Assembly (NCBI GenBank): GCA_964016885.1
Contig: OZ024740.1
Coordinates: 277,698,001-277,762,000, forward strand
Direction of reading: 5' to 3'
Length of the DNA stretch: 64,000 nucleotides
DNA from: Eledone cirrhosa
Taxonomy: Eukaryota
Shown: positions 243 through 63,903 of the stretch, one piece after another
Layout: each line of letters begins with the position of its first letter
Position numbering within the stretch: position 1 is the first letter of the stretch
The notes under the pieces: model-generated
Database searches by the model: none
What the model saw: the letters and a program-made list of their open reading frames with translations, nothing else
Told to the model about the DNA's origin: nothing
Translations under genes and position numbers: made by a program

Positions 243-591
243 TCTATAGATTTAGAAAAATAACCAATAATGTATTCTATAAAAATGTCAAAACAACAGA
301 TGGGAATCTAATTACTCACTGCCACCAAAAACTCTTACTGCTATCAAAAAACCACTCCCTCAACTATTCTTCTAACAACTTCACCCCTCCCTCCTAATAT
401 TCTCTATAAAAACCAAACAGGTCATCAATAAAATTATTCTGATGAAATGACAGTTGATAATAACATTGAAATATTGAATGTCTGCATAACTAATACTTTG
501 AAGATAGCAGCTGTTTTCAGGTTATGTAACTGTTATTGAAAGACGTGTCAATAAATTCCTTTTAACTAAACTGTATCCATTTATATCCTTC
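243..591 (+). mobile_element. Degenerate PLE 3' end / pLTR
   Basis: One frame reads NLITHCHQKLLLLS, like the PLE C-terminal CxH motif; followed by two hammerhead-like cores, AATAAA, then (TA)n. Confidence 0.55.
439..482 (+). ncRNA. Hammerhead ribozyme-like motif (stem I decayed)
   Basis: CTGATGA-aatg..catt-GAAA-tat tga atg-TC; a second variant TTGAAGA-tagcag..ctgtta-ttGAAA lies at 498-541. Confidence 0.55.
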
Positions 592-844
592 TATATATAT
601 ATATATATATATATATATATATATATATATATATATATATATATATATATAAATATATATATATATATATATATATATATATATATATATATATATATAT
701 ATATATATATATATATAAATATATATATATATATATATATATATATAAATAGAGAGAGAGAGAGAGAGAGAGAGAGAGAGAGAGAGAGAGAAGGATATAA
801 ATGGATACAGTTTAGTTAAAAGGAATTTATTGACACGCCTTTCA
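537..844. repeat. Inverted repeat (537-591 / 790-844) around a (TA)n(GA)n tract
   Basis: 55-bp arms are reverse complements with 1 mismatch. Confidence 0.9.
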
Positions 845-880
845 TATATATATATATATATATATATATATATAAGTGAA

Positions 881-991
881 GGCGCATGGCTTAGTGGTTA
901 GAGCATTGGGCTTGCAATTGAGAGGTTGTGAGTTCGATTCTCGGACCGGGTGATGCGTTGTGTCCTTGAGCAAGACACTTTATTTCACGTT
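881..991 (+). mobile_element. tRNA-derived SINE 5' half with CORE-like body (family S1)
   Basis: A box TGGCTTAGTGG, B box GAGTTCGATTC, then TGTGTCCTTGAGCAAGACACTT; relatives at 33907-34238 and 63323-63688. Confidence 0.85.
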
Positions 992-1089
992 ATATATATA
1001 TATATATATATATACAAAGAAAATACAGAGTTACTAACTCATATTGATACTCTGCAATTAACAAGCTCAAAGTATAAATACTGACCATT

Positions 1090-1190
1090 CGAGGTTAACT
1101 TTGCCTTTCATCCTTACGGGGTCGATAAAATAAAATAGCAGTAATACACTGGAATAATTGCTGGCTTTGTGCCAAAAAGGAGAAACAATT
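1090..1190 (+). mobile_element. SINE 3' fragment (family S2)
   Basis: CTTTCATCCTTACGGGGTCGATAAAATAAA...GAAACAATTAT shared with 6527-6710, 8153-8340 and 42784-42950. Confidence 0.8.
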
Positions 1191-1342
1191 ATATAATAAT
1201 ATATGTAGAAATAAACACAGTAAATTGTGTGTCTAAAATTACGAGGGTTGAAATACATCGGTTTGATAAATTTCACCTGAAGCAAATGGAAGATATAGAA
1301 TATATATACAGACCGTCTCAATAACTATTTCATCTCTCGGAC

Positions 1343-1695
1343 AGATTAAAGATTTAATCTGTTTCGCCCTGAAAATTGTGTTTGTGTTTGTAACAGATAA
1401 TCCGTAGGCGAGAAATAAGATCAAATGGAACAAACACATACAAGTGGTGTGAGTGGATATGCTAAAAATAATAGCCTTAACACACCCAAATTATAAGCTC
1501 ACCTTGTTATGCTAGTATTAAAGCTATTATTTTTAGCATATCCACTCACACCACTTCTAACGTCCAGCGCACGAGGTGAGATTTTCATTCGTGTGGCTTT
1601 CAGTTGTATGTGTTTGTTCCATTTGATCTTATCTCTCGCTGGATTATCTGTTACAAACACAATTTTCAGGGAGAAACAGATTAAATCTCTAATCT
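1343..1695. repeat. Diverged inverted repeat (1343-1480 / 1518-1695)
   Basis: Reverse-complement arms with indels; the right arm has about 45 extra nt. Confidence 0.85.
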
Positions 1696-1699
1696 AATA

Positions 1700-2470
1700 G
1701 TTTTTATATATTTTATACTTTTTTTATATATGTGTATATACGTATATGTCTATATATATGTATATGAGTGTGTGTGTATGTATTTTCTATATATGTACGT
1801 GTTTATGACAAGATGCATCCTTTCATGTCTGACCCATTGTGTATCTTTATATGACTTTGTGTATATTCTATTTATGTATATATATATATATATATATATA
1901 TATATATATACACACACATATATATATATATATTTATTTATTTATGCGTGAGTGAGTGTGTATGTGAATATGCGCATATTTGTAAGAGTGTATATGAGCC
2001 AGTGTGTGTGTGTACAAGCACCCCTGTAGGGAAAGGGCTTATTTGTGTATATACATGTGTGTTTGTGAGCGAGTGTGTATCTGTGGGTGTATATATATGT
2101 ATATAGGTACCTGTGTGTATGTGTGTGTGTGTGTGTGGGGGGGGTCTACGTATATGTCTGTACGTGTTTGTGTGTACGGGTATATATACGCGTATGCATG
2201 TGTATGCACATGTGTGTGTGTATGTTGATGTATATGGGCATGTGGGCATGTGTCTGTGTATGTACGTGCCTCTCTGGATGCATGTATGCGTATGTTTATA
2301 TGTTTATATGTTCTCCTTAAATGTGCGTGTATAGCGGGAGTCTATGCGTAAGACTGTCGTTATCTATGTGATTATGTACGTGTGTGTGTGTGTGTGTGTG
2401 TGTGTGTGTGTGTGTGTGTGTGTGTGTGTGTGTGTGTGTGTGTGTGTGTGTGAGTGCGCGCGTGGATGTG
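1700..2470. repeat. Compound (TA)n/(TG)n low-complexity tract
   Basis: Direct inspection. Confidence 0.95.
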
Positions 2471-60900: not shown

Positions 60901-61540
60901 TGCAGGGGATGACAGGTTGTTCTGATTTAGTTTCCCAGAGTTTTTTCAGTTTTTTTATTGTCAGTTGTTGTGGGTACAGTGTTTTCAGACCAGCTGGTAT
61001 CTCTTTTCCATGTTTCACCAGCCTTAACAAACTACCATATCTGCCCATCATCTCGTAGGCTGAAGCTTTCATGTTCTGCCGAGCTACGGTTTAAGGAAGC
61101 TGCAGCACGCAACTTTGGGCGGATATCAGGTGGAAGACCAGGGCGTGTTCGGAAAGCAATCCGACTTTCACGCCTAGCTTTATCAGAGGCTACAAGGTAT
61201 GAACGTGCCTCAGTTGAGTTCGAAAAGGACAGTCTAATTAGCCTGGGTTTCGGGCCTGGTCGGCCAAGGCGTAGAGCACCCTTTGCACAGCCCAAGTCTT
61301 TGGATGAGCTGGCAGCAAATGGCTGAAGATCAACTATGTCTTTTGGTACACCAATGGCAATCACTTCGTGGTTTGCAGATTCAGTGGCATTCTCAATGCG
61401 TCTAGGTTCAACATGAGGTAAGCGGAGATTTTTTAACAAGGCACTCCGGTAAGATCCCTCATTGTGGGGTTCTACACGAACGCTTGATTTTATTCCCGCT
61501 ATTTCTCGGCTTAAAGCGGAAATCATTTTCTGCATGTGTT
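57970..61540 (-). mobile_element. CR1-clade LINE (partial ORF1, APE-RT ORF2, frameshifted)
   Basis: LNARSI, ETW, GDF, SDH; NYRPVSLTS, YLDFTKAFNSVPH, GVPQGSV, YADDIK, TRGH..RKHFF..RV..WNKLP. Confidence 0.93.
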
Positions 61541-61591
61541 TTATTGAAATTATGTCCCTCCCAAAGCATAACTACATATATATATATATAT

Positions 61592-61709
61592 ATATTTATT
61601 TAAATAACAGATTAAAGTTTAGGCAAAGAATCGCTGTTTCAGAAGATTCCGTTAAGAGTGAAAGCAGCGATTCTTTGCTTAAACTTTAATCTGTTATTTT
61701 AATAAATAT
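61592..61709. repeat. Hairpin with about 49-bp arms beside (TA)n
   Basis: Reverse-complement arms with about 3 differences. Confidence 0.85.
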
Positions 61710-61886
61710 TTGCTCTACGGTTCTTATATATTTAATATATATTTATCCTTATGGAGCCCTCTTTAGATTTTAGTCTTCAAAGTTATTATTATTACTATAT
61801 ATATATATATATATATATATATATATATATATATATATATATATATATATATATATATATAGTAATAATTATAAATTTGAAGACTA

Positions 61887-63320
61887 ATGTACTCCCACTA
61901 CGTTGATGATATAAACATCGTAGTAAAAGCACCCCCACTAGAGAACAGTCAGGAATTAGAGAAAAACACCATGGAAATCATCCACCAAATAGTTAACTCC
62001 ATCCACCAGAGTATTAAAGTTACTATACACTACCCAAGCAAACACCCCAGCCATCGATTACCTGTACTAGACACAGACCTCTGGTTAGAAACCATTAATA
62101 ACAAAAAACAAATCCTCCATTCCCATTATGCCAAACCAATGACTGATCCACCGAAACTCAGCTGTTTCGGACCACACCAAAATCAACATACTGATTGCGG
62201 ATTTGGTACGGGTGATGAGAAACGTGTCCCGCATGTTCAACCTCAAAGAACTAGAGAGACACATACAACACTTCATCCACCGTATGCAGTTCTCTGGTTA
62301 CAATTAGAGAGATAAAATCAGAGTATATAGAGGAGCCAGAACAAAATGTGAAAAAATGGTAAATAATGATACAAATGGGACCTGCCCCTTGTATAAGAGC
62401 AAATTTTGGAATAGAATAGAAAGAACTGGGAATAAGGTTAATAGAATGAACTCATGGTATGATAGCAATAAATACCAGAGTGTAATGTTCATCAATACAA
62501 CCCCTAGAAGTGAATTAGCTTACAAATTTAGAAGAGCCCTAGATAAACATAAACTCAATAATAAGATAGTAGAAAGACCAGGTACCTCCATAAAAAAACA
62601 CTTATTAGCAATACATACCCTTTTCAAAGACCTCCATGTATAGATAAGAAATGTATAATCTGTAAACTAATATTAACTGTAAAACTAGAAATGTAGTATA
62701 TAGCATAAGATGTACCGAAGGACAATGTAGAGATAAGAATATAGTGTACATAGCTGAGACAGCTCGTAGTATAGGAGAACGGATAAATGAACACTGGCGA
62801 GAGCTTCAAGATAGCAAAGAATCATTTGCACTTCACCAACATGCTAAAATAGAACATAAGGGTAAATTAGAGAACATAGAAATAAAAATAGAATCTACAC
62901 ACAGAAAAGACGCAATGTTTAGACAAATCACAGAGGCAATAAACATAAATGAACTCCAACGAAATTAAATAGAAAACATGAATGGAATAGCAACATCACA
63001 ACTTACAATTAAGGACAAATTGAAAACACACACACTTAATGCCAGGACCGGTTGTATCTCAGCGTACTCAATAGCCAATGTAAGATACATTCCCAGAGTA
63101 TACACATAGTTATTCCCTTCAATATAACACACGTAAAACGGGTGCCTATAATAGTTCCCGGACTAGAGTTTCGGCCACACTTAATGCAGCCTCTGTCTGC
63201 ATATATTATGCAATGATGCATAATCGGCTTATGTATATATTTTAGGGACGATCGACTTTCGTGAAATTGGACCGAGGAAACAATGTTTCCGTCGGTCTTT
63301 CTAATTGCTAATACTATCTA
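61887..63320 (+). mobile_element. 5'-truncated PLE related to the 2845-4665 copy
   Basis: YVDDINI, RLPVLDT, VVYSIRC..YIAETARSIGERINEH..RQITEAINI; preceded by a 27-bp inverted repeat around (TA)n (61771-61887). Confidence 0.88.
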
Positions 63321-63322
63321 TT

Positions 63323-63688
63323 GGTCGCAACTCCAGGTAGAAGGGGCAACGTGAAATAAAGTGTCTTGCTCAAGGACATAACGCATAGCCTGGTCCAGGA
63401 ATCGAACTCATAACCTCACGTTTGCGAATCCAATTCTCTAACCACTCAGCCACACACCTTATGTGTATGTGTGTGTGTATGTATATATATATATATATAT
63501 ATATATATTTATATATATATATATATATATATACACACACACACACACACACATACATAAGGTGTGTGGCTAGAGAATTGGATTCGCAAACGTGAGGTTA
63601 TGAGTTCGATTCCTGGACCAGGCTATGCGTTATGTCCTTGAGCAAGACACTTTATTTCACGTTGCCCCTTCTACCTGGAGTTGCGACC
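63323..63688. mobile_element. Head-to-head inverted pair of SINE S1 around (TG)(TA)(CA)
   Basis: 63323-63460 (-) and 63559-63688 (+) are identical except for an 8-nt deletion. Confidence 0.9.
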
Positions 63689-63689
63689 G

Positions 63690-63903
63690 ATATATATATT
63701 TATTTGGTTCCTTTACCGGTTTCGCAGTTCTTCTGCTTTTCAAAAGGTGAGTTGAGATGGAGGGTCTGTGGTTTTTCTCACACACACACATATATATATA
63801 TATATGTGTGTGTGAGAAAAACCACAGACCCTCCATCTCAACTCACCTTTTGAAAAGCAGAAGAACTGCGAAACCGGTAAAGGAACCAAATAAATATATA
63901 TAT
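63690..63903. repeat. Perfect palindrome centred on (TA)n, carrying a mutated hammerhead (63846-63883)
   Basis: cctt-TTGAAAA-gcag aagaa ctgc-GAAA-CCGG-TA-aagg. Confidence 0.92.

Follow-up and report, generated by a model that had tools for sequence, protein, structure and literature searches.

Inverted repeats of the window

The stretch of the Eledone cirrhosa genome analysed here (assembly GCA_964016885.1, contig OZ024740.1, positions 277,698,001 to 277,762,000; 64,000 nucleotides (nt) in all, referred to as the window) is rich in inverted repeats next to (TA)n, some of which enclose coding sequence of Penelope-like elements (PLEs) and others of which are bare hairpins with hammerhead ribozymes. 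We consider it probable, at roughly 70%, that most of these repeats are PLE insertions into (TA)n made by two-ended target-primed reverse transcription, in which two complementary DNAs (cDNAs) are joined head to head.

The roughly 15 inverted repeats listed in a preliminary description were recovered at their positions by self-BLAST after masking of simple repeats, and the arms of 13 re-aligned pairs differ at 0-16 bases over 42-1199 aligned bases. They had been taken to consist of many unrelated sequences, but are mostly the ends of dispersed repeat families. Judged from copies elsewhere, each of ten window families (A-J, Table 1) has a proximal and a distal end point, most of which adjoin (TA)n; one arm in the window usually touches (TA)n directly, and the opposite arm carries a tail of 45-110 nt before (TA)n. 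At the family A hairpin (34309-34698), (TA)n lies beyond both ends, and hammerheads are found at 34406(-) and 34512(+). At the family B hairpin (from 63700), the left arm is cut at an internal TA run and the tail reaches a (TA)16 just outside the window.

Four repeats had been said to enclose PLE coding sequence. This holds for 3025/4804 (coding at 3672-4691), 12903/22206 (16118-18589) and 25056/28340 (about 25700-27684). The fourth, 19716/21572, holds an endonuclease C-terminus of about 190 bp only (21007-21198, minus strand; E 7e-6), together with a second F-like end at about 20490-20590, and a link between its arms and the fragment is not established. In PLE F, the inverted arm (18748-22203) bears the tail (22204-22272), and hammerheads lie at 12987(-) and 22121(+).

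Five type I hammerhead sites with an intact core were found in the window by a descriptor scan (12987-, 22121+, 32993-, 34406-, 34512+), compared to none in each of ten shuffles; 34406-/34512+ and 12987-/22121+ form outward-pointing pairs. Of the three hairpins previously described with outward hammerheads on both arms, 34309-34609 has an intact pair and 63690-63903 a pair with a U3-A8 core (63743-/63850+), whereas the pair at 22315-22985 (family G, 22470-/22833+) consists of decayed copies that fail the descriptor; one relative of G has an intact stem III and a damaged core. The U3-A8 core is common to the whole of family B, and its interpretation as decay older than the duplication was therefore rejected; the same variant has been reported in PLEs (Cervera and de la Pena, 2014, PMC4209133). 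Taken by family, the end-repeat hammerhead is intact in A, F and C, of the U3-A8 type in B and decayed in G. No hammerhead model is among the 150 of 182 Rfam matches listed for the window, nearly all of which are to microRNA models and below threshold.

One short and one tailed arm per insertion

The two arms of an insertion are of different kinds. Among pairs less than 700 nt apart, a short arm is paired with a tailed arm in 43 of 45 cases in family A and in 21 of 22 in family B, where 50% would be expected (each set includes one duplicated locus). The upstream reach of the arms was tallied by hand in 20 fetched family A loci, three of which were dropped (one short/short, one tail/tail, one direct tandem). 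Of the 17 informative insertions, 11 have the longer upstream reach in the tail-less arm and three in the tailed arm, and in the other three both arms end within 20 nt of each other. In 11 of the 14 asymmetric insertions, as well as in window element F, each arm contains sequence that is absent from the other. Unless later deletions are invoked, one arm of such a non-nested pair cannot be a fold-back copy of the other, which argues for two RNA-primed cDNAs rather than the snap-back of a single strand. Arms diverge by 2.3% within loci compared to 8.3% between loci (39 loci), and since they share subfamily alleles, both would derive from the same kind of RNA.

The association with (TA)n extends beyond the window. 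In a sample of 114 evenly spaced 10-kb stretches (1.14 Mb, mostly from contigs C1-C4), 149 inverted repeats were found whose arms are 40 nt or longer and at least 88% identical (observed identities 88 to 100%); they cover 4.0% of the bases and amount to about 136 per Mb. An outer end at (TA)n, i.e., within 10 nt of (TA)4, is present in 99 of the 149, against a control mean of 31 and a maximum of 45, so that the enrichment anticipated for a genome-wide scan is indeed found. In 65 repeats, one end lies at TA and the opposite end at a distance of 25-130 nt from TA (control mean 6.5, maximum 14), and only 11 have both ends at TA. The preliminary description had the repeats ending at or centred on (TA)n; this is accurate for the outer ends but not for the centre, given that 5 of 55 short-spacer repeats are TA-centred and that a looser search for TA-centred fold-backs yielded six in the 114 loci. 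Because (TA)n is enriched at outer ends and rarely central, it appears to be the target of these insertions and not their pivot.

From coding elements to bare hairpins

Copy numbers elsewhere in the 3.0-Gb genome were obtained with exact sequence patterns. A 23-mer from the ribozyme at 34512 has 22,619 matches, and its reversed control none. Among the first 100 family A matches listed are 32 outward pairs, 104-6,852 nt apart, ten of which lie at 231-241 nt. The proposed continuum from PLEs with an open reading frame (ORF) to bare hairpins is borne out for family A, where arm spacings range from 0.1 to 5 kb, because long pairs enclose an 821-amino acid (aa) frame with Hydra-clade motifs (copy L226; 49% identical to F over 274 aa) and because, in the tandem copies L236 and L237, the tail continues into the 5' untranslated region (UTR) and ORF, with the pseudo-long terminal repeats arranged as partial tandems. 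Family B has 13,904 matches and the same layout of short and tailed ends.

As in endonuclease-bearing (EN+) PLEs, a single ORF combines a reverse transcriptase (RT) with a C-terminal GIY-YIG-type endonuclease, an assignment made from motifs, and inverted 5'-truncated copies with a one-ended tail are present as well. Pfam gives a weak RVT_1 match for K only (E 5e-4) and none for E or F. RWK-like and DKT motifs, a CxCx5C linker, CxxC and CxH near the end and a (TA)n target can be recognized by eye in L226 and F, and by these motifs families A and F belong to the Hydra clade of C-terminal EN+ PLEs. Asn-rich stretches lie between RT and endonuclease in the Hydra-type ORFs (16118-17956(-) and L226:1354-3819; compare the inserts of Adineta vaga PLEs). 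The 3' UTR of PLE F (15197-16171) consists of decayed tandem units, each 113-139 nt long, that were copied from the end of the ORF. Parts of the family A end sequence also occur in sequencing runs of 16 organisms.

The bare hairpins had been regarded as products of extreme truncation. However, most of them turn at one fixed point per family and are not randomly truncated: exact patterns identify at least 1,817 such loci in family A and at least 1,129 in family B. The turning point of family B (AGATG) has TATAAAA 30 nt upstream, and that of family A (ATATG) has an initiator-like TCATAT. From these surroundings, the fixed turning point is predicted to be the transcription start, which we consider likely. 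In family A, both arms extend one templated base past the fixed point at 3 loci, compared to 116 loci with a C on both arms. This additional C could have been templated either by the cap or by an internal CATATCATG of the arm, and is taken as evidence of a fixed end only. In families A and B, junctions that are asymmetric can have either orientation relative to the tail, as expected if each hairpin is made anew.

Other family A hairpins, 70 in number, turn near the ribozyme. Among the 50 listed, 18 have both arms and 6 have one arm ending at the predicted cut, while two neighbouring, equal microhomologies account for 1 and 0 (tallied by hand); 21 sit on the natural helix III palindrome, and 5 are of other kinds. 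This suggests that a minority of hairpins turn at the predicted ribozyme cut, and hence that the ribozyme might cut a minority of templates in vivo. Head-to-head pairs of a short interspersed nuclear element (SINE) provide a small natural control: of 13 loci, five were fetched, and four of these turn at the SINE 5' end without a central TA.

In six families, the end of the short arm is followed after 6-11 nt by an RCTC motif (34616, 22214, 63962, 32476, 61712 and 28519(-)), which is also present past the distal end of A (L236/L237); several of these motifs are able to pair with GAGY further on. The motif is a candidate for an RT start signal.

Other features of the window

Table 1. Inverted repeats and related insertions of the window
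Feature	Position	Strand	Description
Family D	539..842		Arms of 53 nt on either side of a (TA)n/(AG)n centre; short end 842; family sequence runs on left of 539
PLE E	2983..4801	-	Neptune/Nematis-like linker; ORF 3672-4691; tail 2983-3027 on ORF arm; short inverted arm 4667-4801
PLE F	12905..22272	-	Hydra-type; coding sequence 16118-18589; arm with the ORF is the short-ended one, at (TA)28
Nested inverted repeat	19738..21553	.	About 240-nt arms, TA at all four ends; within the inverted arm of F
Family G	22318..23094		Short-ended arm 22318-22804(-) joined to 179-nt arm plus tail 22803-23094(+); decayed hammerheads; retrozyme-like
PLE K	25066..28332	-	DKG, CxxxxCxxC linker; 466-nt inverted arms, both directly at (TA)n
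Family H hairpin	28364..28815		Hairpin 28527-28815, 137-nt arms, 1 mismatch, tail on left
Family I hairpin	32038..32546		Tail 32470-32546; (TA)n at both ends
Flank copies beyond I insertion	32547..32722		Inverted and re-inverted copies of flank 31947-32024
Family C	32735..33332		Inverted pair of high-copy, about 430-nt retrozyme-like unit; hammerhead 32993(-), long arm only
Family A hairpin	34309..34698		End piece of Hydra-clade PLE (by motifs); short arm 34309-34455, tailed arm 34465-34609, tail 34610-34698
Family J hairpin	61596..61795		Hairpin 61596-61705, tail 61706-61795
J tail copy	61770..61887		27-nt inverted copy of J tail end across (TA)33; likely minor mode
SINE fold-back	63245..63700		Aged tRNA-type SINE copy folded back across (TG)(TA)(CA); arms share 5 minority alleles; adjoins B insertion
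Family B hairpin	63700..64000		Identical 80-nt arms; centre (CA)(TA)(TG), located at the fixed turning point of the family; hammerhead of U3-A8 type

About three window cases likely reflect a minor mode at the DNA level, whereby a (TA)n end would fold back and be extended along its own flanking sequence. In the SINE hairpin (63310-63700), the arms share five minority alleles as judged against 29 other copies, and include an upstream simple repeat. The flank copies at 32547-32722 have no other copy in 600 kb. The J tail copy is joined to a 5'-truncated PLE at 61887-63030(+). All three touch a PLE-type insertion and may be by-products of the same breaks. The SINE subfamily itself (63245-63462(-); L196-L225) has a 3' part of its own, 8,389 exact matches, and often ends in (TA)n with or without an A run. 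That it is routinely inserted as hairpins was rejected, given 13 head-to-head loci against 8,389 copies (counted with different patterns).

The long arm of family G (22318-22804) matches one permuted monomer of 487 nt precisely and begins at its own tail (compare L285:807-1262), as if copied once round a circle. A family A hairpin, L238, is duplicated in inverted orientation together with kilobases of flank, which points to later inversions at the DNA level. Two old hairpins (1343-1695 and 12298-12629; 65-67% identical) are without a (TA)n end and have no further copy in 600 kb; they are possibly decayed derivatives of DNA transposons. The block 35466-61571 is nearly without (TA)n or hairpins and is full of decayed long interspersed nuclear elements (LINEs), including two copies (45265-48651 and 51015-54399) that are 73% identical.

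A proposed two-ended mechanism and its alternatives

In the mechanism that we propose, the GIY-YIG endonuclease would cut both strands of (TA)n, and a dimeric RT would engage one RNA, or an RNA pair, at both start sites. Each cut end would then prime its own cDNA. Each insertion has one arm that starts at the proximal site and another that starts at the distal site, the tail being the stretch in between. Engagement of an end piece near the RNA 5' end would let both cDNAs run off the transcription start and leave a bare hairpin, and engagement of a downstream end piece would carry them into the ORF and generate the long forms; a minority of cDNAs might run off a ribozyme cut. The cDNA ends would finally be joined through microhomologies of 1-4 nt, in some cases with the addition of a few bases. 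The earlier suggestion that both ends of a break are extended on RNA and then joined agrees with the pairing of one short with one tailed arm and with the non-nested arms. It had placed the start of extension at the RNA 3' end, but extension would instead begin at two fixed sites, one per arm, and its second route, snap-back of (TA)n, does not serve as a general one, given that most pairs of arms are non-nested and few repeats have TA at their centre; it agrees with the roughly three window cases above.

Related systems provide precedents for several of these steps. Inverted 5'-truncated copies and a one-sided tail have been described for PLEs generally, and the Hydra clade as presented there shares the RW and DKT motifs, the CxCx5C linker, the end-repeat hammerhead and insertion at (TA)n (Craig et al., 2021, PMC8557442). 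Tails are 30-40 nt in that account but 45-110 nt here, and its available text mentions neither thousands of hairpins without an ORF, nor a fixed turning point, nor the one-short/one-tail rule. For PAc Poseidon in vitro, two RT start sites were found to bound the tail, as in the families described here, at an AT-rich target; the protein, a predicted dimer, cuts and extends both strands, and the ribozyme is not needed for insertion (Frangieh et al., 2024, PMC11167929). As far as the available text of that study goes, joining is left open and inverted arms are not addressed, whereas in the genomic products each end is associated with one of the start sites. The Penelope elements of Adineta vaga share head-to-head inverted end repeats with junction palindromes and a tail on one of them, TATA- and initiator-like motifs in the end repeat, and Asn-rich ORF inserts (Arkhipova et al., 2013, PMC3846280). 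Minimal PLE hammerheads are likewise of type I, with a palindromic helix III and a U3-A8 variant, and hammerhead pairs on opposite strands, 100-700 bp apart, were noted in passing in Schistosoma mansoni, without a mechanism in the text available (Cervera and de la Pena, 2014, PMC4209133). Non-LTR retrozymes are non-coding, hammerhead-bearing PLE derivatives whose monomers families C and G resemble, and a G-related 483-nt tandem, 67% identical, is present in L003 (1170-2373); they are, however, defined by direct tandem units (bioRxiv 10.64898/2026.07.22.740005), which A hairpins lack, most hairpins here being inverted stubs of coding elements.

Twin priming of LINE-1 is a further point of comparison: the RNA is copied from primers at both ends of the target, which are then joined through microhomology, resulting in an inversion without duplication. 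In contrast, both primers here would copy the same stretch, which yields an inverted duplication.

Alternatively, a single cDNA or antisense RNA could fold back and be copied, so that the second arm is a copy of the first, and self-priming on an antisense template has indeed been proposed for PLEs (PMC3846280); the snap-back of the preliminary description is related to this reading. Perfect palindromic joints, the commonest junction in family A, would be accounted for in this way, as would CATG-type additions (by local snap-back on an internal motif), the A hairpin L006 with flank in both arms, and the subfamily alleles shared between arms. Nevertheless, such copying needs a tailed arm that contains the other, and the reverse is seen in 11 of 14 asymmetric A insertions and in element F; the non-nested arms thus argue for two primers, and a fold-back origin of most repeats is unlikely. 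The hairpins could also be a self-propagating, non-autonomous family of MITE-like (miniature inverted-repeat transposable element) or hairpin RNA elements that are copied as whole units. The thousands of near-identical copies, the recurrence of some junctions and the sharp size peak at 231-241 nt (10 of 32 outward A pairs among the matches listed) would fit such a family, but the junctions are diverse, with asymmetric ones in both orientations relative to the tail, the hairpins span subfamilies 8% apart, and identical ends flank ORF-bearing copies. In place of the symmetric termini and fixed interior of a MITE or foldback DNA transposon copied as a unit, asymmetric ends and variable junctions are found. 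With no sign of a separate self-propagating class, the earlier proposal of a class of non-coding hairpin elements is not upheld, and this origin is very unlikely.

Highly improbable, too, is that host repair or replication at (TA)n cruciforms inverts and duplicates flanks independently of retrotransposition. It would suit the SINE hairpin, the flank copies and the six TA-centred cases of the sample, yet it cannot produce family-specific short and tailed ends or a fixed centre without TA, and is contradicted for the majority of repeats; even the three window cases all adjoin a PLE-type insertion. That the hairpins are foldback or chimera artefacts of sequencing or assembly is barely credible. 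The arms at 63700-63893 are identical and none of the read sets demonstrably spans a window hairpin, but arm divergences of 0-12% (identities 88-100%) and family-specific asymmetry are unlike chimeras, and joints at the fixed point of family A are contained in contigs built from the short reads of run X1, which may be the assembled sample, and in raw reads of X23 (96) and X24 (14), with one start place each, from another study.

Several observations weigh against two-ended priming or its details. Non-nested arms could also result from deletions that occurred later in the middle of long palindromes; three short pairs break the one-of-each rule, being short/short or tail/tail; and the choice of arm pairs by exact motifs is biased towards young copies, with most pairs coming from contig C1. 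No tail is seen at either arm of PLE K or in the nested repeat at 19738-21553, and no convincing PLE ORF lies upstream of family B in the loci examined. In vitro, both strands used both start sites alike (PMC11167929), from which a one-of-each rule does not follow directly. As to the turning points, transcription start and ribozyme cut are predictions from the DNA sequence, family A has no TATA box at -30, the additional C is rare in family B (2 of 50 listed) and might be templated by the internal CATATCATG, and 21 of the 50 listed ribozyme-centred hairpins lie on the natural palindrome of helix III.

Implications for Penelope-like elements and their host

Inverted copies, tails, the (TA)n bias and the ribozymes are already published, and the one-of-each rule, the non-nested arms, the fixed turning point and the scale were not found in print, in a literature search that covered mostly open-access main texts. 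How PLEs build inverted structures is named as open in section 15 of PMC8557442, and the steps after priming are left unvalidated in PMC11167929 as far as its available text goes. For the in vitro system, the genomic products lead to the sharp predictions that each DNA end uses a single start site, that the arms are non-nested and that they turn where the RNA has its 5' end.

If 34309-34698 were transcribed by read-through, the RNA is predicted to fold at -240 kcal/mol (z = -35), and hairpins of this kind could give rise to double-stranded RNA (dsRNA). An excess of ADAR-type A-to-G changes was not seen among the differences common to both arms (4 of 35, in a set that includes three loci of related families). 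A broader proposal, which we regard as possible but rather doubtful, is that PLE retrotransposition is obligately two-armed, with a dimer priming a single time at both of two RNA sites, one for either DNA end: every inverted insertion would then be the record of two cDNAs, and run-off at a capped start or ribozyme cut would mass-produce bare hairpins. Some 100,000 or more near-perfect inverted repeats might have arisen in this way, amounting to about 4% of the genome and making PLEs the main source of its intramolecular dsRNA for editing or silencing, and the junctions would form a fossil map of RNA 5' ends and of ribozyme cleavage in vivo.

Hairpin insertions will be mislabelled as MITEs or, as the Rfam matches illustrate, as microRNA precursors. 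At about 136 inverted repeats per Mb, the insertions might supply much dsRNA and much DNA that is prone to form hairpins, and two-ended priming would explain the long-puzzling inverted shape of PLE insertions.

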